In this document: positions 21,175 through 29,739 of the stretch, piece by piece
How positions within the stretch are numbered: the stretch's first letter is position 1
Layout: each line of letters starts with the position of its first letter
Origin: Candidatus Thorarchaeota archaeon
GTDB taxonomy: Archaea; Asgardarchaeota; Thorarchaeia; Thorarchaeales; Thorarchaeaceae
Length of the DNA stretch: 29,878 nt
NCBI GenBank assembly: GCA_011364905.1
Contig: RDNZ01000034.1
Span: 1 to 29,878, forward strand
Direction: 5' to 3'
The notes under the pieces: generated by a model
What the model was told of the DNA's origin: nothing
What the model saw: only the letters and a program-made list of their open reading frames with translations
Databases searched by the model: none
Translations under genes and position numbers: made by a program

Positions 21175-21750
21175 TTGGTTTATGTGAAGGAAAAACAACT
21201 TGAGAACTTCTTCGATGTTGTCACGAAACGAAGGAGTATCAGGAAGTACAAAGACATAGAGATTCCAGACGAACATATTCAGACTATGCTTGAGGCGGCG
21301 CAACTTGCACCATCGACCAACAATTCGCAGCCATGGCGTTATGTTGTGGTGAAGGAGCCTGAAACAATAAAGTTGCTCTCACTTGTCGCAGGTAGACAGA
21401 AGTTTATTGCAAATGCAAAAGCTATCATCATTGCCGTAGCTAATCGAGCTGCCTCTTGCTGCCCTGGTAATCCGTCAATGTGGTATGTACAGGACACAAT
21501 GATTGCGACCGAGCATCTCGTCCTAGCAGCAACAGCACTGGGTTATGGCTCATGCTGGGTGGCGATGTTGGACTCGAGAAACAGTCAGAACATCGTTGCA
21601 GTAAAAGAGGCTCTTCGAATACCAGAAGGTGCTGATATTGTTGCGCTAGTGACACTCGGTGTTCCCGATGAAGTTCCATCTCCTAGGTCCACATTGGAAC
21701 TCAACGAGATCGGATTCTCTGAGGCATATGGTTTCAGCTGGAGCGCATAG
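21175..21750 (+). CDS. Nitroreductase family protein
   Basis: RRSIRKY, APSTNNSQPWRYVVV, LAATALGYGSCW. Confidence 0.93.
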   Translation: MVYVKEKQLENFFDVVTKRRSIRKYKDIEIPDEHIQTMLEAAQLAPSTNNSQPWRYVVVKEPETIKLLSLVAGRQKFIANAKAIIIAVANRAASCCPGNPSMWYVQDTMIATEHLVLAATALGYGSCWVAMLDSRNSQNIVAVKEALRIPEGADIVALVTLGVPDEVPSPRSTLELNEIGFSEAYGFSWSA

Positions 21751-21756
21751 ATACTC

Positions 21757-22311
21757 ATGTCGAGCGTACAGAGGCACTGGGTGATGAAGGAAGAAGTACG
21801 AGGGAACATTCTCAATCCCTTACCGGTCGCGTTAGTAGGCGCGCTTGTTGATGGTAAGCCCAACTACCTTGTGATTGGTTACATCTCACCATTTAATTTT
21901 GGTAAACATGTCTTCTTCAGTCTGTTCAAAAAGCGTTACACAAGAACCGGTATCCTCGAGAACACGACTTTCAGTGTAAATATCCCTTCAATTTCCCTCC
22001 TTGAGGAAACACAGCTTTGCGGAAGTAAGTCTGGTCGCGACTATGACAAGTCATCTCTCTTTGAAACATTCTTTGGAGAACTGAAAACAGCTCCGATGAT
22101 CAGAGAATGCCCTTTGAATATGGAATGCCAGGTTGAACAGATTCTCGACTACGACCTCAATGAAGGAATCATAGGAAAGGTAGTCCAATCCTATGCTGAT
22201 TCAAACATCTTGGTCGATGGCGACCTAGATATCAGAGAAGTCCATCCCATTATATGGGCTACTTGCGGCGATTTCAACTATTACAGTATTGGAACCAGAA
22301 TTGATGCCTAA
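21757..22311 (+). CDS. Flavin reductase-like (flavoredoxin) protein
   Basis: PLPVALVGA.VDGKPN, FSVNIP, CGSKSGR, APMIRECPLNMEC. Confidence 0.9.
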   Translation: MSSVQRHWVMKEEVRGNILNPLPVALVGALVDGKPNYLVIGYISPFNFGKHVFFSLFKKRYTRTGILENTTFSVNIPSISLLEETQLCGSKSGRDYDKSSLFETFFGELKTAPMIRECPLNMECQVEQILDYDLNEGIIGKVVQSYADSNILVDGDLDIREVHPIIWATCGDFNYYSIGTRIDA

Positions 22312-22327
22312 ATCCTACAAAGACTGG

Positions 22328-22774
22328 TCACAGATTGGCCGTCGCCACTGACTCTTTAAGTGCTGACAAAAGTCTTAGAGAAAGCAAGAGGCCTACTAGT
22401 GAGAATATCAGTCCTAGTGATGCAGCAATATATCGAAGGGGCGAGTCAATCAGTCCAATTACAACTGCATAGATAGATGGTGCAGTGGCTATCAAAAACA
22501 TGAGCACAGCTGGTCCGATGATATCGAACGATACAGATCTCCTTCTAAAGGCCAAATAGGTGACATAGACGATTAAAAGTTCAATGGGCATCATAAGAAC
22601 CAAGACCCTTGAAATCATGGTCGTGCCTGCACTGGGCGGGTACTCTGACCCTGGCAATATTAGACTGACAAATGACAGGGTTATGGCATAGACAACGAAC
22701 AGTGCTAGAAGACGCTTGGCGTTTCCAAAACTTGAATCAATATATGATTCTGTAGACTCCATCCTCATCATCAT
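22328..22774 (-). CDS. Four-TM membrane protein
   Basis: 148 aa, four hydrophobic segments. Confidence 0.65.
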   Translation of the reverse strand: MMMRMESTESYIDSSFGNAKRLLALFVVYAITLSFVSLILPGSEYPPSAGTTMISRVLVLMMPIELLIVYVTYLAFRRRSVSFDIIGPAVLMFLIATAPSIYAVVIGLIDSPLRYIAASLGLIFSLVGLLLSLRLLSALKESVATANL

Positions 22775-22845
22775 ATCGAGTTTTGTTTCTCTTGGTTTAA
22801 GGGTTTGCTTAATTTGGGCTGGCCAGATTGTTCTTAGTGTGAAGT

Positions 22846-22869
22846 TGGAGGGTTGGCCTGGGCTCGAAC
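22846..22869 (-). repeat. Possible heavily eroded tRNA 3'-end repeat
   Basis: tggagggttggcctgggctcgaac: 15/24 ungapped match to the tRNA-Ala 3' end with exact TGG...TCGAAC spacing; intergenic. Confidence 0.4.
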
Positions 22870-22934
22870 TCTGAACTCAAGATCAGAACTCAATCTCTTG
22901 ACACGATGCGTTGCATCGCACATCGAAACGCTTA

Positions 22935-23099
22935 CTACTTCTTTAGTTTCAGGTCTTTGCCACAGCAGCTGAACGAACAGCTACAGCTACCTTCGTCACT
23001 GCAACACTGTGTGCACTCAGATAAAATCTGGATTTCAAGTCCACAATCTTCACAGTAGTAGACTTCGTCTTTTTTCATATCATGACAATGTAGTCCCAC
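22935..23099 (-). CDS. 54-aa Cys-rich desulforedoxin/metallothionein-like protein; not in the ORF track
   Basis: GGAG SD then GTG: MGLHCHDMKKDEVYYCEDCGLEIQILSECTQCCSDEGSCSCSFSCCGKDLKLKK, 10 Cys. Confidence 0.85.
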   Translation of the reverse strand: MGLHCHDMKKDEVYYCEDCGLEIQILSECTQCCSDEGSCSCSFSCCGKDLKLKK

Positions 23100-23197
23100 G
23101 TTGGTAATCTCCTTCTATTAAACGGCTCAGTGAAATATATCAACTCATCGGCCTCTACATTGTTATCTACTTAGGAGTTTAGAGTTTCTCTCAAGAC

Positions 23198-23917
23198 TCA
23201 TTCAAAATCAGTGTCGAATGATTGGTCACCAGACCCATACGTAGCTATTTCCTGAGCAAGGGCGTTAACAATTCGATTCAATTGTTCAGGTGTGTATTTC
23301 TTACTGACTGTAACTATCTTTGTTTCCTCCAAAAGAAGAAAATAGAGGACTCCTCTTCCTGTGTAGTATGTATCCTTATCAACTGGAATTGTGAATTCAT
23401 CTTCTCTTCTTGCAACCTTAATGTCGCCAACAGGATGTGTGTATTCCCATCTCCATATCGCTCTGGGGAGTTGGACTTTTTTGTCAAAAGATCTCTCAGA
23501 TTGGAAAAACGCAACAAAAAGGAGTGCATTGGATCCCCATTGAATGATGATGTACACCGGATCCTTGTTCAGAACCGCTAGTTTCCCCTCAACAAATGGC
23601 TCTGGGGGAGCGATTTGATTTAGGACATCCATTCCACGAAACAGCATAGAGCTTCCTATTTTGTAGTACGTAACAATTACGAAACCGACAATTCCAATTC
23701 CGCTAAGTGCAATGAACAAGGTCGTGATAGCACTCACAGGTAGAGAATACTGTAAGAAGAACGTTGAGATTGGTAGAAGTGGAAGTGCAACACACATTAA
23801 GATGCCAATGATCAGTTTCCCTCTTATGGATGCTCGAACCTCCTCTTTCGCATCCGACTCCGAATTGCTTTGAAAATCTTCCACAGTAAATCCCAACTGA
23901 TATGGAAAACTAGTCAT
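23198..23917 (-). CDS. Hypothetical membrane protein (2 TM plus soluble domain)
   Basis: 239-aa ORF. Confidence 0.65.
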   Translation of the reverse strand: MTSFPYQLGFTVEDFQSNSESDAKEEVRASIRGKLIIGILMCVALPLLPISTFFLQYSLPVSAITTLFIALSGIGIVGFVIVTYYKIGSSMLFRGMDVLNQIAPPEPFVEGKLAVLNKDPVYIIIQWGSNALLFVAFFQSERSFDKKVQLPRAIWRWEYTHPVGDIKVARREDEFTIPVDKDTYYTGRGVLYFLLLEETKIVTVSKKYTPEQLNRIVNALAQEIATYGSGDQSFDTDFE

Positions 23918-24001
23918 GAGATGAGATAAGGTTTGGTGGAAAATCGTAAGCTAAGTGCTACTTGAGTTAAGCTATCACCATGCCTAACTGATGTCAACTA
24001 C

Positions 24002-25027
24002 TTAGACTGAAGTCAACAGGTCTGCCACATCAAATGAAAGAATCCACATCTTTCTATGAACCTTGAATCCCATTCGCTGATTGATTGAAAGCATAGGTGC
24101 ATTTGCATTAGCATTTCCAGCTTCTATTACCCGGGCTCTCGGATACTTCATCATTGCATAGGTCAACATCTCCGCCTTTAGCCACTTGCCCAATCCACGT
24201 CCTCTGTATTGGTCTCTGACCCCTGTCAGACCCTGTTCAATTAGATGCCACGCCTCTGGCTGATACCAAATCTCGGTCAATCCACTAATTACACCATCAG
24301 GTTCCTTGCTGATCATAGTACTCCAGACTTCCCCCTGTGATTGGAAGTATTTTTCCATCTTTCTTCGGCTTTCAGGTGTGACAATCATTTCTGGTGCTAC
24401 GTCCTCAAGAGGAGCTTGATTCCACATCTCTGTATACAACTTACAGTATTCCTCAAGTTCTTGATCGGGAACTGAACTGAAAATCTCAATCCTCACTCCA
24501 GAGGCCTTTTTCTGGCCCTCCTCTCGCCAACGAGCAACCATCTGCAAGTCTACCTCAGAGAGCACAAGTCGATTTATCACCCGACTACTGACAATTCCAC
24601 ATCCTAAGGACGCAAAGAATGAGTATTGATGTTCAGCTCTCGTTTCGACAACCAGCTTCTGCTTTCCAATCTGCTCTGCTTTTCTCGCCAAGTATCCCAG
24701 AAACTCAGTTTGGGTTTCTTTAGTAGTGAACTCCTCTTCCAGAATCAAGTCCGCATAAGCTGTTTCCTTTTCACCCTCATAATTCGGTGCGCTTTCCCTT
24801 GCCCACCATACCCCTCCCATTCCAACCACTTCCCCTGAGTCAGAATCTGCTCGCCACCATGATAATTCATAATCAGGGTGTGGGGATAACATATAGGACC
24901 GTCGTCGCTTGTGCGAAGGTGATGGATCATCTGGAGCGAGTTGAGAGTAAACTCTGTCCCGCGAGTCGAAGTATTTCTTCCAGTCTTCCTCGGTCAGTTC
25001 TGAAGGTTTGAACTCTACGAATTGCAT
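24002..25027 (-). CDS. Tandem-domain GNAT N-acetyltransferase
   Basis: TGVRDQYRGRGLGKWLK (acetyl-CoA motif A), NANANAPMLSINQRMGF; ATG at 25027 preferred. Confidence 0.9.
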   Translation of the reverse strand: MQFVEFKPSELTEEDWKKYFDSRDRVYSQLAPDDPSPSHKRRRSYMLSPHPDYELSWWRADSDSGEVVGMGGVWWARESAPNYEGEKETAYADLILEEEFTTKETQTEFLGYLARKAEQIGKQKLVVETRAEHQYSFFASLGCGIVSSRVINRLVLSEVDLQMVARWREEGQKKASGVRIEIFSSVPDQELEEYCKLYTEMWNQAPLEDVAPEMIVTPESRRKMEKYFQSQGEVWSTMISKEPDGVISGLTEIWYQPEAWHLIEQGLTGVRDQYRGRGLGKWLKAEMLTYAMMKYPRARVIEAGNANANAPMLSINQRMGFKVHRKMWILSFDVADLLTSV

Positions 25028-25133
25028 TCTGGGGAAGAATGGTCTAATGTCAATGGAAAAAAATACCGCTTTCAGCAAGATCTGTATCTATTGGCTCTCC
25101 TTTGGGTCCACTTTTCATGTCGCACGAGTTGAA

Positions 25134-25157
25134 TGGTGGACCGGGTGAAATTCAGAC
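25134..25157 (-). repeat. tRNA-Ala 3'-end repeat R6
   Basis: tggtggaccgggtgaaattcagac, 19/24 identical to 29663-29686. Confidence 0.85.
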
Positions 25158-25259
25158 TCGCAATGATTTCTAGCAGAGTGGCCCAAGAAACGTTTGAACG
25201 GATGATTATTAACCAACTTCTGAGATTGAACTCCGGTTGGTTAGGTACAAGGGGCTGTC

Positions 25260-26750
25260 TTGATGAAACGAAACGGACTGCTTGTAGTTACATCTGTTGT
25301 AATCTTGGGTTTGCTGGCTTCTATCTTGTATCTTGCTTCACAAGGATTCTGGAATGGGACAACCGATTCTTCACCTGATATTATCATTCACAATGGGGAA
25401 ATCATCACTATGGAGCAGTCGCCTGCACAAGTCGAAGCGCTAGCAATCAAAGGTGAGTATATTGTCGCTGTAGGCAATGAGAATGATGTCCTCGCATTGG
25501 CGGGACCAAATACTCAACTCATCAATCTTGAAGGAGGGGCACTTCTACCCGGTTTTATTGATGCTCATGCTCATCATATAGGTGACCGAAGTTATGTGAA
25601 CCAATCATCGTCAGAGGAAGTGATTGAATCAGTACTAAGCTCTGGGTGGACCAGTATTTCTGAACTTTTTGTGAATCCAGAACGCTTGGATGGGCTCATG
25701 TCTTTAGATCAACAGGACAAGCTTCGCGTTCGTGTAAACGCTTACCTCACATTGAGCTGGCAGTTTGATAGGTTCGGCGATTGGTATAAGGAATATCAAC
25801 CCAGGCATGAGTACAGTTCGAAGTTAAGGATTGGAGGAGTGAAGATCTTCATGGATAGCTGGTATACCGACTGGACTCACTACTTCAACCAAACCGAGCT
25901 GGATTCATTGGTGCAACAAGCTCATGAAGAGGGATTTCAGATAGCCATTCATAGTGTGACCGATAACGCAACAGATATTGTTCTAAACGCTCTGGAATCT
26001 GCATTGGACGGGCAATCGAACCAGCTTTATCGTCATCGAATCGAGCATCTTGTCCTCCTCAGAAACGACCAGATACAGAGGATTGCTGACCTAGGAATCA
26101 TAGCTTCTTTTCAACTGACATGGATTAACTCAGACTGGGAACAAGCAGTGTCATGGCCAGTCTTGCAGAACTACCCAGATCTCACAGGAAGATGGAGAGA
26201 TATTCTTGAAGCTGGCATACCCTCACAAGGAAGTACCGATTTTCCATGGCTTCTTGGAACAATAGAGAGATCAGCAATGTATGCAGTTTCTAGTGCTGTC
26301 ACAAGAGTAGGAGGAATGGGGCTTCCACCCACAGATTGGATGTTGAATCAGACTCTCAGTGTCGAACAGGCTTTGCGTCTGATTACAATTGACGCAGCCT
26401 ATGGCACTTTTCAAGAGGATGTAAAGGGGAGCATTAAGGTAGGAAAACTCGCTGACCTAGTCGTTCTTTCAGACAATCCACTCACAGTTCCAGAAAACAC
26501 TCTTGCAAACATAGAGGTACTGATGACGATGGTTGGAGGGGTTGTAGAGTACACAACTCCCGGCCAGCAGTTTTTATCTGCAGAGTTGTTGCTGGCTACT
26601 AATCAAAGAGTTGAATGCTTGAGTCAAATGCCCAAGATGGAAATGATAGATCCATCTAATCAAAAGAAAGGAGTGGTGGACCGGGCGAGATTAGATTCCT
26701 TAGACCATTTAGAAATGAAGTGCAATGAGCCCAACTTCAGTAACAGATAA
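25260..26750 (+). CDS. Amidohydrolase family 3 (YtcJ-like) with N-terminal membrane anchor; cassette gene
   Basis: PGFIDAHAH, GVKIFMD, QIAIHS, RHRIEH, GSTDFP, GSIKVGKLADLVVL; the C-terminal tail reads through repeat R5. Confidence 0.9.
   Translation: MMKRNGLLVVTSVVILGLLASILYLASQGFWNGTTDSSPDIIIHNGEIITMEQSPAQVEALAIKGEYIVAVGNENDVLALAGPNTQLINLEGGALLPGFIDAHAHHIGDRSYVNQSSSEEVIESVLSSGWTSISELFVNPERLDGLMSLDQQDKLRVRVNAYLTLSWQFDRFGDWYKEYQPRHEYSSKLRIGGVKIFMDSWYTDWTHYFNQTELDSLVQQAHEEGFQIAIHSVTDNATDIVLNALESALDGQSNQLYRHRIEHLVLLRNDQIQRIADLGIIASFQLTWINSDWEQAVSWPVLQNYPDLTGRWRDILEAGIPSQGSTDFPWLLGTIERSAMYAVSSAVTRVGGMGLPPTDWMLNQTLSVEQALRLITIDAAYGTFQEDVKGSIKVGKLADLVVLSDNPLTVPENTLANIEVLMTMVGGVVEYTTPGQQFLSAELLLATNQRVECLSQMPKMEMIDPSNQKKGVVDRARLDSLDHLEMKCNEPNFSNR
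26674..26697 (-). repeat. tRNA-Ala 3'-end repeat R5
   Basis: tggtggaccgggcgagattagatt, 20/24. Confidence 0.9.
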
Positions 26751-27104
26751 TCCAATCACAAAACTGACGTGGATTGATAGGACTAAGTTCTCGACCAGCC
26801 TTGGAGGTGATACGAGCGCCAATTCAAGTAGAATGGCCATAATCATTACTATGAGAGGTCTAAACAAAGGATCTACTTTTCCTTCATAAAGTCGCACAGC
26901 ATAATAGAATTCCAGAACTGCAACCGAGATTCCAAAACCAATTGCTCCAAACGGTCCTGCCATGGTAATATCAGGACCATGATCAACTACCCAACTAGTA
27001 TGCAAGTATTTGAAATGCATCACTAATGGAATTGGAGTTATCAATATGCCTCTGGCACAGTGGATAAGTGGCAGCAATCTGGACTCAGCGTCGGTTTGAG
27101 TCAC
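26709..27104 (-). CDS. Small four-TM membrane protein, H-x-A-R family paralog A; cassette gene
   Basis: IHCAR, AGPFG, IHVSFVIGLS.TE; similar to 27830..28225. Confidence 0.75.
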   Translation of the reverse strand: MTQTDAESRLLPLIHCARGILITPIPLVMHFKYLHTSWVVDHGPDITMAGPFGAIGFGISVAVLEFYYAVRLYEGKVDPLFRPLIVMIMAILLELALVSPPRLVENLVLSIHVSFVIGLSVTEVGLIALHF

Positions 27105-27170
27105 TACTGAACCTCATAAATTCGATAATGAAATTCATAGGGGCCAATCAATCTATATCTTTTGGAAAAA

Positions 27171-27193
27171 TGCTGGCCGGACGAAATCCGAAC
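27171..27193 (-). repeat. tRNA 3'-end repeat R4 (degenerate)
   Basis: tgctgg-ccggacgaaatccgaac, 18/24 with one gap; preceded by an A-run like the other repeats. Confidence 0.7.
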
Positions 27194-27267
27194 TCCCGTC
27201 TTCGAAGAGATTTTATTGGTATCTATGAACTCCTTTGATAACAACGCACTCAGGTTGATGAATATCG

Positions 27268-27768
27268 GTGCAACTAGATCCTCAGACCTTCTCAATTGTT
27301 ATCGCAGCCTCAAGCGTCATTATTGGTGTCATTTTCAGCGTTGCTTCTATCCTCATGTCGACTAGAAATGCAGCCAAGTCAAGACAAGCTTCAATCTTTC
27401 TGGAATTCCTCAGTGTCGTTTCAGAGAAGGAATTCTTTGGTGATTTTCAGCAGATTCTTGGAAAATGGGAGTGGGAGGACGCAAAAGATTTCGCCTCCAA
27501 ATATGGACCAGTAACAAATCCAACGGATTACAACACATTTGTCAGAATCGTGACACAATTCGATAGCATGGGGACTCTGGTCCGAAACAAGTTGACTGAC
27601 ATTTTGTTCATGCCCAGAGGAATCGCTATTATGGTCACAAGTTTCTGGGAACGATTCAAACCAATCGCCTCTGACCTGGAGGTGATATGGGGAAATGCTG
27701 ATGTCTTTGGTGAGATCGAATATCTCTACAATGAGATAAAGAAGGCTCGTGTGTCTGTGGTAAAGTAG
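27268..27768 (+). CDS. N-terminal TM protein, DUF4760-like; cassette gene
   Basis: QTFSIVIAASSVIIGV TM, then RQASIF, FDSMGTLV, FWERFKP, IEYLYNE; family call is from memory. Confidence 0.7.
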   Translation: MQLDPQTFSIVIAASSVIIGVIFSVASILMSTRNAAKSRQASIFLEFLSVVSEKEFFGDFQQILGKWEWEDAKDFASKYGPVTNPTDYNTFVRIVTQFDSMGTLVRNKLTDILFMPRGIAIMVTSFWERFKPIASDLEVIWGNADVFGEIEYLYNEIKKARVSVVK

Positions 27769-27789
27769 TGGACCAGGCTTGATTTGAGC
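27766..27789 (-). repeat. tRNA-Ala 3'-end repeat R3
   Basis: tagtggaccaggcttgatttgagc, 19/24; its first 3 nt are the stop codon of the adjacent gene. Confidence 0.85.
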
Positions 27790-27829
27790 TCACTGAAGAC
27801 GATATAGCTGACAACCAATAATCATTAGT

Positions 27830-28225
27830 TTAAGGACTATCTTGTGTATATTCGATTGCTAGCAATACAGCTTCCACAGCAGAGAGTCCAATTACAAAGC
27901 TTACATGAATTCCGAGAATCAATCCATCAATAGATCTCAAAGAGCCTGCAAAAGTAAGTTCAATCAGAACGGCTAAAACCATCAAACAAAAGGGAATACG
28001 CAGATCATCCATCTTTTCTTCGACTAGTTGTTTGCCGAAGATGCCCTCTAGAAGTGCGACTAAAACTATCAGACCGTATGGGCCAGCCCGAATTACTACA
28101 ACCATGTCCCACGGGAATTGAGATAATATGTAGGACTGCCTAACCTCCAAGGCAATTATTAGTGAGAGGACCAACACGGTCCTTGCCGCGTGAATGACTC
28201 CCAGATTCCTCTGTATCTTAGTCAA
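27830..28225 (-). CDS. Small four-TM membrane protein, H-x-A-R family paralog B; cassette gene
   Basis: IHAAR, AGPYG, IHVSFVIGLS.VE; GAGGGA SD before TTG. Confidence 0.75.
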   Translation of the reverse strand: MTKIQRNLGVIHAARTVLVLSLIIALEVRQSYILSQFPWDMVVVIRAGPYGLIVLVALLEGIFGKQLVEEKMDDLRIPFCLMVLAVLIELTFAGSLRSIDGLILGIHVSFVIGLSAVEAVLLAIEYTQDSP

Positions 28226-28304
28226 ATCAATCCCTCACAAACCAACCTGATACTAGTAGACTGGATGCCTATTAATCAAACTCAACAAGCAATCAGAAAA
28301 GAAA

Positions 28305-28326
28305 TGGTGGATCGGGCGTGATTTGA
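28305..28326 (-). repeat. tRNA-Ala 3'-end repeat R2
   Basis: tggtggatcgggcgtgatttga, 20/22. Confidence 0.92.
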
Positions 28327-28818
28327 CTATGAAAAATCGGAGATAGCCTGATTTCTCCCCAGTCCTTTGGCCAATAGCCCCATTTCTAATGTCCCAAGTA
28401 GAGATACTCCCAGTATCAAAAGGACCTTTGCTAAAACAGGCACGGTAGCTGGAATATCTAATCCATACACAAACAGAATATTATCTGTGATAAGCAGAAG
28501 GATAACTTGAGATACTAATTGACCTAGCGTCGGAAGTACATATCCGCCTAGTGTTTTCCAGTGTTTTTGGAGTACATACACATCAAGTCCAATCAACACA
28601 ACTGCAGGGACAATAAAGACGAACGGATATGAGACTAGTGACGGATATGGTCCCCCAGGACTGTTAAAGACATCAAAACGGTACTTTTCGTAGTTGACAT
28701 GTAGTATGAGTGGAAAGGAAGTGAAAACTGTCACTCTTGCCAGATGTAATAGTCTAACCAATATTGGTCTGTTCGAGTGTTCACCTACTTTCTCTTGATA
28801 TAAGCCATTTGACAGCAC
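28327..28818 (-). CDS. Four-TM membrane protein, distant H-x-A-R family paralog C; cassette gene
   Basis: LHLAR...PLILHVNY, GGPYP, LEMGLLA align with paralog A (IHCAR...PLVMHFKY, AGPFG, TEVGLIA); start may be GTG about 27 nt downstream. Confidence 0.7.
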   Translation of the reverse strand: MLSNGLYQEKVGEHSNRPILVRLLHLARVTVFTSFPLILHVNYEKYRFDVFNSPGGPYPSLVSYPFVFIVPAVVLIGLDVYVLQKHWKTLGGYVLPTLGQLVSQVILLLITDNILFVYGLDIPATVPVLAKVLLILGVSLLGTLEMGLLAKGLGRNQAISDFS

Positions 28819-28881: not shown

Positions 28882-28905
28882 TGGTGGACCGGGCGTGATT
28901 CGAAC
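28882..28905 (-). repeat. tRNA-Ala 3'-end repeat R1
   Basis: tggtggaccgggcgtgattcgaac, 24/24 identical to the tRNA. Confidence 0.97.
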
Positions 28906-29662: not shown

Positions 29663-29739
29663 TGGTGGACCGGGCGTGATTCGAACACGCGACCTCTTCC
29701 ATGCCAAGGAAGCGATCTACCGGGCTGATCTACCGGCCC
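29663..29739 (-). tRNA. tRNA-Ala(GGC)
   Basis: Reverse complement GGGCCGG-TA-GATCAGCCCGGTAGATC-G-CTTCC TT GGC AT GGAAG-AGGTC-GCGTG TTCGAAT CACGC-CCGGTCC-A-CCA, with the G3:U70 alanine identity pair. Confidence 0.98.

Follow-up and report, generated by a model that had tools for sequence, protein, structure and literature searches.

Small, predicted four-helix membrane proteins in a tRNA-Ala-bounded gene array of Thorarchaeota

In the 29,878-nucleotide (nt) stretch of an uncultured Candidatus Thorarchaeota archaeon analyzed here (contig RDNZ01000034.1 of GCA_011364905.1, an assembly of 3.08 Mb that is 81% complete) and referred to below as the window, a tRNA-Ala(GGC) gene anchors an array of copies of its own 3' end, which mark off six short intervals. 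Three of the six hold a small gene on the minus strand, exactly as an original prediction made from the sequence had described: gene A (26709-27104; 131 amino acids (aa), GTG start) and gene B (27830-28225; 131 aa, TTG start), whose proteins carry an H-x-A-R motif, and gene C (28327-28818; 163 aa, GTG start), whose protein reads H-L-A-R. The locus raises the question of how three diverged genes came to lie in one array, whether they are part of its machinery or travel in it, and what their products might do. The best explanation overall, which we regard as probable though not secure, is that a superfamily of small membrane proteins is moving as cargo modules bounded by tRNA-Ala ends.

Modules bounded by tRNA-Ala ends

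Gene A belongs to a module of ~520 bp that is present in four genomes, namely at the window, in G360, in G357 and at a metagenome locus. When the DNA of the four loci is aligned, similarity spans the module from the upstream to the downstream tRNA fragment and the flanking sequence is unrelated. The module is bordered by an amidohydrolase and a DUF4760 gene in the window, by a DNA methyltransferase gene and a 116-aa open reading frame (ORF) in G360, by ORFs of 229 and 75 aa in G357, and by ORFs of 430 and 481 aa at the metagenome locus. Read along the gene, a tRNA fragment is followed by a TATA-like box, a Shine-Dalgarno-like site, the gene itself and a second tRNA fragment. The box (27145-27163, minus strand) reads AAAAGATATAGATTGATTG in gene direction and lies immediately past the upstream CCA; in the four genomes it is nearly invariant as AAAAGATATAG(A/G)TTGA, which resembles the archaeal B recognition element/TATA element. 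The Shine-Dalgarno-like site is reached after ~40 nt, and the GTG start follows. The box is a putative promoter; a bacterial promoter and terminator scan was uninformative for an archaeal host. Given this fragment-to-fragment similarity together with a box and a Shine-Dalgarno-like site of its own, the A module is a discrete and apparently self-expressing unit. The upstream fragment is degenerate in the window (27170-27193), and at the corresponding position G360, G357 and the metagenome locus have a better-preserved tRNA end.

The same setting is found for the other close relatives. All six H-x-A-R genes with readable DNA, i.e., A, B, G360:C227, G357:C255, G339:C182 and the gene on metagenome contig JABAHP010027088, lie between tRNA-Ala 3' fragments, whereas by our own calculation tRNA-end 24-mers with up to 7 mismatches are expected by chance at ~0.02 per 3 kb. 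The fraction of family members next to tRNA 3' fragments, which had been proposed as a check, is thus six of six for H-x-A-R genes with readable DNA. Stable locations away from tRNAs had been named as a finding that would speak against the idea; loci devoid of tRNA fragments were encountered among distant relatives: those of the N-x-S-R type (N-type), as well as the C-type copy in G353, showed no tRNA fragment within 1.4-1.5 kb. The G339 copy (L019 4607-4846) is a remnant from which the H-x-A-R helix is missing; it retains only the second to fourth transmembrane helices (TM2-TM4), Gln takes the position of His112 (A numbering), and even here a tRNA fragment lies 10 nt beyond the stop. Among C-type genes, that of G338 lies next to tRNA-Ala(GGC), as the opening cassette of an array with at least eight, and that of G355 (268 aa) lies in an eroded array sharing several genes with the left part of the window.

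If the three genes had arisen by tandem duplication and divergence within the array, their adjacency, common orientation and similar size would be readily accounted for. Copies of A in other genomes are, however, 66-73% identical to it, and the closest relative of B, P0008, is 69% identical to B, yet A and B share just 36% identity (over 128 aa, BLASTP E 1e-21). In a maximum-likelihood tree the copies from G360, G357 and the metagenome, as well as P0003, fall in the group of A; B and P0008 are sisters (support 100/100) in a separate clade that also includes P0009-P0011, and C clusters with the G338 and G355 copies, the three clades being separate and supported; moreover, A and B are parted by an unrelated cassette, as noted originally, which holds a DUF4760 gene (27268-27768, plus strand). 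Local duplication was rejected on the basis of this tree and is, in our view, barely credible. Since A, B and C are each nearer to relatives elsewhere than to one another, three separate arrivals are indicated, and the repeated independent capture proposed in the original prediction is borne out both by the separate clades and by the presence of the A module among different neighbors in four genomes.

It had also been suggested that the family may be functionally tied to the cassette system, e.g., to the capture, excision or maintenance of tRNA-end arrays. The confinement of readable H-x-A-R genes to tRNA-Ala arrays and the occurrence of three copies in one six-cassette array fit this idea. 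However, tRNA-Ala 3' fragments were detected in 86/86 genomes of the taxonomic family, a genome typically having 4-17 of them, whereas the A/B family occurs in 4 of the 28 genomes of a single genus. Most of these genomes contain more fragments than the tRNA-Ala genes expected of them would explain, and in several the fragments were confirmed to form clustered arrays; dense runs occur, such as seven copies in 5 kb (G327:C172). Furthermore, the G338 array holds just a C-type copy, distant relatives are located outside arrays, and the proteins are membrane bundles without a nucleic-acid-binding feature. A role in the system itself is therefore very unlikely. With fragments so widespread and the proteins rare and of membrane-bundle type, the H-x-A-R proteins ride in the tRNA-Ala accretion array as optional cargo and are not part of its machinery.

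As to how the cargo moves, H-x-A-R members travel as self-contained one-gene modules of ~0.5 kb, each between copies of the terminal 24 nt of tRNA-Ala, and the three copies of the window were acquired separately. Movement would proceed by recombination inside the shared tRNA-end sequence, presumably catalyzed in trans; no recombinase was seen among the window ORFs near the array. The A module is above all a tracer with which the movement of single genes with their own putative expression signals can be followed at base-pair resolution among Thorarchaeota genomes. It documents directly that genes flow cassette by cassette in the archaeal lineage closest to eukaryotes, and it offers a defined 0.5-kb substrate for seeking the recombination mechanism.

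Kinship and distribution of the three genes

A, B and C are real genes. Each has a GAGG(G/T) motif 6-9 nt ahead of its GTG or TTG start, the Shine-Dalgarno-like sites being GAGGT at 8 nt (A), GAGGG at 7 nt (B) and GAGGGT at 8 nt (C) upstream. The ratio of non-synonymous to synonymous substitution rates (dN/dS) is 0.19-0.31 for A of the window against the copies of other genomes, 0.18-0.36 among A copies and 0.38 for C against the G338 copy; these ratios and a confident AlphaFold model also count in favor of the genes.

The motifs reported to be shared by A and B, from IHxAR, AGP(F/Y)G and the LE... and ...L.EL blocks to IHVSFVIGLS..E, were all found. Both proteins meet the definition of the H-x-A-R family, i.e., an N-terminal L-I-H-x-(A/T/S)-R, a Glu in TM2 and IH-x-(S/G/N)-x-V-(I/V)-(G/S)-(L/V)-S-x-x-E in TM4, whereas C carries only H-L-A-R and E-M-G-L of the family motifs and so falls within the wider superfamily only. 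With BLAST, C aligns with A over 43 N-terminal residues alone (E 1e-4) and not at all with B. We compared two alignments, A1 for the A/B family (11 sequences) and A2 for the C family (5 sequences), the C homologues having been found by a six-frame search of the taxonomic family (35% identity in G338, 29% in G355, weaker in the others). In hhalign, A1 and A2 align over 112 collinear columns with E 3.6e-5, a probability of 71% and a score of 35.7, and H-x-A-R is matched to H-L-(A/S)-R and the TM4 Glu to the Glu of C.

It might be argued that C is unrelated to A and B, and that its H-x-A-R and E-x-G-L likeness reflects chance or composition in hydrophobic proteins. The lack of a BLAST alignment between B and C, the insignificant match of A1 to the C sequence alone (hhalign probability 1.9%), the modest profile-profile probability obtained from shallow alignments and the low confidence of the C structure model are all compatible with this view. 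On the other hand, the score of 35.7 stands against 14.4 for a small membrane family that occurs in the same arrays but is unrelated, 10-11 for reversed alignments and at most 14.8 for 30 column shuffles; the A1/A2 alignment is collinear and end-to-end, the A and C models agree in the number and order of their helices, and a hidden Markov model (HMM) of A2 also matches the A-type gene of G357 (E 7.8e-4). An unrelated C is therefore considered unlikely. A and B are certainly members of the superfamily and C probably is: on a profile-profile score well above the controls and the match of A2 to the G357 gene, C was accepted as a distant member and not as a close paralogue, at a limited but real risk of error.

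The superfamily is rare. When 1.84 billion representative proteins were searched in full with HMMER, six clusters came up for B, and word-indexed searches returned six relatives with A as query, a single one with C and 13 with the profile of the whole superfamily; none of these relatives bears a Pfam domain or an informative name. No relative was found among IMG/VR viral contigs with the family alignment or in a genome-contig scan with B, while a metagenome scan, the pattern of which misses P0003 and P0008, yielded one locus. When 400 genomes of the phylum were scanned, the A/B profile matched 4 of the 28 belonging to the genus of the window and 0 of the 372 others; the C-type profile matched 11 genomes from four genera of one family. 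As far as these sequence searches reach, the superfamily is confined to Thorarchaeota. It is an orphan family: at 90% identity it accounts for about a dozen of 5.8 billion clusters, and at 50% identity for only six representatives out of 1.8 billion clusters that cover ~15 billion proteins. It has a confident four-helix membrane model and a predicted conserved cluster of buried charges.

Predicted structure and candidate functions

The four transmembrane helices attributed to the family hold as a prediction, obtained from both hydropathy and AlphaFold, and not as a measurement. For A, a model based on an 18-sequence alignment (predicted local distance difference test (pLDDT) 83.6, predicted template modeling score (pTM) 0.74) has helices at residues 5-39, with a kink at prolines, 46-73, 81-97 and 103-130, and for C four long helices were obtained at a pLDDT of 67. 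In all 10 full-length members of the A/B family 4-7 Lys/Arg residues occur on the N-tail, loop 2 and the C-tail, as opposed to 0-2 on loops 1 and 3, and on account of this bias both termini are predicted to be cytoplasmic (N-in/C-in). A, B and C are all predicted to be up-down four-helix bundles with both ends in the cytoplasm.

The best-conserved segments are the cytoplasmic half of TM1, with L-I-H-x-A-R, that of TM4, with G-L-S-x-x-E-x-G-L, and the L-E-F-Y stretch of TM2. Loop 3 and the halves of TM1 and TM2 that point outward are conserved least, and nothing varies more in A/B-family proteins than the outward loops. His15, Arg18, Glu65 and Glu123 (A numbering) are invariant or nearly so in A1 and may form a conserved buried polar cluster in the cytoplasmic leaflet, while Glu94 and His112 may form a pair in the outer leaflet. 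In P0005 and P0006 Glu94 is changed to Met and His112 to Trp together, and this joint change, being one evolutionary event, does no more than hint at a contact. In the wider superfamily Arg18 is the sole invariant residue, the His and two of the Glu residues not being kept; in one clade Asn stands in for His (L-V-N-L-S-R), two Cys are conserved and the tail reads E-I-R-T-Y.

From this anatomy alone, the most likely role would be a protective, self-sufficient single-gene membrane function, for instance one that excludes an agent acting on membranes or confers immunity to it, which we put forward tentatively and as a candidate that is itself more probably wrong than right. The four-TM colicin A-type immunity proteins are an example of the small polytopic immunity and exclusion proteins of bacteriocin and phage systems. 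Like them, the H-x-A-R proteins are small, have four predicted helices, are self-sufficient as single genes, and occur as diverged variants side by side on mobile DNA; unlike them, they show no sequence or specific fold similarity to such proteins, have no cognate toxin gene nearby and bear their conserved face on the predicted cytoplasmic side. The likeness lies in a possible mode of action and not in family membership. Receptor masking in its simple form, also suggested originally, is argued against by the predicted cytoplasmic position of the conserved cluster. For the ligand or metal binding likewise suggested there, it is relevant that the wider superfamily has Asn where these proteins have His and keeps just the Arg throughout.

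A small ion- or proton-handling bundle ranks second among the functions that could be derived from the anatomy, and we consider it rather doubtful. In its broader form, this alternative holds that the proteins are small transporters or channels for ions, protons or metals, similar to SMR, Fluc or other four-helix oligomers, which confer niche-specific resistance. The size, the predicted four-helix topology and the predicted membrane-embedded position of invariant Glu residues along with His and Arg agree with it, and a self-sufficient single gene suits resistance cargo. However, neither Pfam nor NCBIfam linked the proteins to SMR, CrcB or any other family of transporters, no such fold rose above generic bundles in the structural ranking, and the conservation of His and two Glu residues breaks down in the wider superfamily. 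SMR transporters have a conserved Glu in TM1; for SMR (PF00893) there was no Pfam or NCBIfam match at E ≤1, and TM1 of our proteins has His and Arg and no Glu. We regard small transporters or channels as an unlikely identity. For the CPBP/Abi intramembrane protease-type immunity proteins (PF02517) there was no Pfam match, and their EExxxR, FxxxH and HxxxN motifs are absent from A1.

Several points weigh against the preferred reading of a membrane protein superfamily that moves as tRNA-Ala-end-bounded cargo. With regard to movement, no match to PF00589 (Phage_integrase) at E ≤0.001 was found in the 81%-complete assembly, while 14/14 control genomes matched. With regard to the family, the genomic context derives from only 5 contigs which bear homologous modules and are hence not independent, and the membership of C depends on a profile comparison of alignments of 5 and 11 sequences. 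With regard to function, the conserved face is predicted to be cytoplasmic, contrary to what receptor masking would lead one to expect, and no toxin or partner gene adjoins consistently. A, B, C and an N-type relative had no match in Pfam, PHROGs, PADLOC or NCBIfam, and the family profile had none among PDB sequences at E ≤1. Foldseek searches of PDB and viral models returned nothing below E 0.3 (PDB E ≥0.37), and the best VIA-align hits were soluble four-helix bundles at Z 11.7, which is below the informative level for such folds. Membrane proteins, the class to which solved four-helix families such as MAPEG, MARVEL and MS4A belong, reached Z 8-9 in VIA-align and did not exceed unrelated rows, and two ESM Atlas searches ended at best in clusters without a name (0.89 and 0.88, under the level that counts).

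The array, its analogues and its other cargo

The anchoring tRNA-Ala(GGC) gene was located with ARAGORN at 29663-29739 on the minus strand, and six further copies of its terminal 24 nt, including the degenerate one, lie on the same strand. The copy at 28882-28905 is exact and forms the upstream limit of the C cassette. The stops of all three genes are close to a repeat, as stated earlier: that of C overlaps the copy at 28305-28328 by 2 nt, that of B is followed after 40 nt by the copy at 27766-27789, and that of A after 11 nt by the copy at 26674-26697. The degenerate copy at 27170-27193 (15/24 matches) divides the A cassette from the DUF4760 cassette, which is limited on its other side by the repeat at 27766-27789 and encodes a protein of 166 aa (Pfam PF15956, E 6e-8). 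The leftmost recognizable copy starts at 25134. Apart from A, B and C, the intervals hold the DUF4760 protein, the amidohydrolase and a 232-aa protein with an N-terminal hydrophobic segment.

In the tycheposon islands of Prochlorococcus, elements insert at the 3' end of a tRNA gene, partial tRNAs flank successive insertions and degenerate ones mark older events, new arrivals push older ones inward, and accessory cargo varies between strains (bioRxiv 10.1101/2020.12.28.424599). The window array likewise has partial tRNAs around each unit downstream of an intact tRNA-Ala(GGC), and the same applies to G338. It differs in that its units are ~0.5-1.5 kb long with one gene each and without integrase, replication or regulatory genes, in that the 81%-complete genome yielded no tyrosine recombinase, and in that the host is an Asgard archaeon. 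With integron cassettes it shares a row of small, sharply delimited modules that mostly consist of one gene, the occurrence of one module at different positions and in different genomes, and a cargo of small proteins often without known function. Its boundaries, however, are direct 24-nt tRNA-Ala 3'-end copies and not attC hairpins, which are imperfect inverted repeats; no IntI adjoins the array, the genes lie in both orientations, and the A module apparently brings its own promoter. By analogy, the context most resembles tRNA-linked accretion islands, and the organization of the units resembles that of integron cassettes. Archaeal integrons were reportedly described by Ghaly et al. in 2022.

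A bolder interpretation combines these elements: the proteins would be diversified membrane immunity or exclusion determinants, swapped through tRNA-Ala 3'-end recombination as integrase-less mini-cassettes with their own promoters, so that the arrays would be an archaeal counterpart of the integron pool with this family as a signature cargo. We hold this combination to be improbable. If the proteins did act as immunity or exclusion factors, a membrane-targeting antagonist of Asgard archaea, either a virus or a toxin, would be implied.

A number of observations concern the history of the array. The intact tRNA-Ala gene (at 29663-29686) and the three proximal repeats contain GTGATT, whereas GAGATT is present in the distal repeats (those at 25134, 26674 and 27170 were compared) and in nearly all repeats of related genomes; the distal cassettes thus bear the tRNA-end allele that is usual elsewhere in the genus. 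The amidohydrolase ORF (25260-26750, plus strand) does not end at the tRNA fragment at 26674-26697 but continues across it and 42 nt into the 3' end of gene A, so that its final ~25 codons come from the repeat and the adjoining cassette. Further left, a 148-aa membrane protein (22328-22774, minus strand) is 40-43% identical to tRNA-Ala-bounded cassette genes of G360 (L017 575-1012) and G357 (L018 2294-2746) and aligns over its full length with a G338 gene (L041 8207-8659). As its homologues sit in tRNA-Ala cassettes, the array probably once reached at least 2.4 kb further left than the repeat at 25134. The family of this protein was also tried as a fourth branch of the superfamily and rejected (hhalign probability 0.3-0.4%). 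In G355:C56 (L042 8150-13124), which was compared with window positions 21175-26750, the amidohydrolase is homologous, the nitroreductase-like and flavin-reductase-like genes may, by length and position, be counterparts of window genes, and the 268-aa C-type protein takes the place of the 148-aa protein; the tRNA fragments there are badly eroded, with 7-8 mismatches.

The C-type gene of G353:C35 lies outside any tRNA array, between 19-nt direct repeats (L033 1455-1473 and 1988-2006) which are 79% identical and agree in each of their first 10 nt; the first of the two overlaps the end of an upstream aldo-keto reductase gene at its stop codon. These repeats may be the mark of the same kind of insertion, here at the end of a gene for a protein, or they may be due to chance. 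Finally, a DNA methyltransferase of ~220 aa (PADLOC MTase_II, E 4e-19), near which no restriction partner was in view, recurs as a single-gene cassette in the tRNA-Ala arrays of five genomes (L017 1656-2327, L018 1633-2268, L019 1132-1809, L041 12279-12947 and L042 10913-11587).

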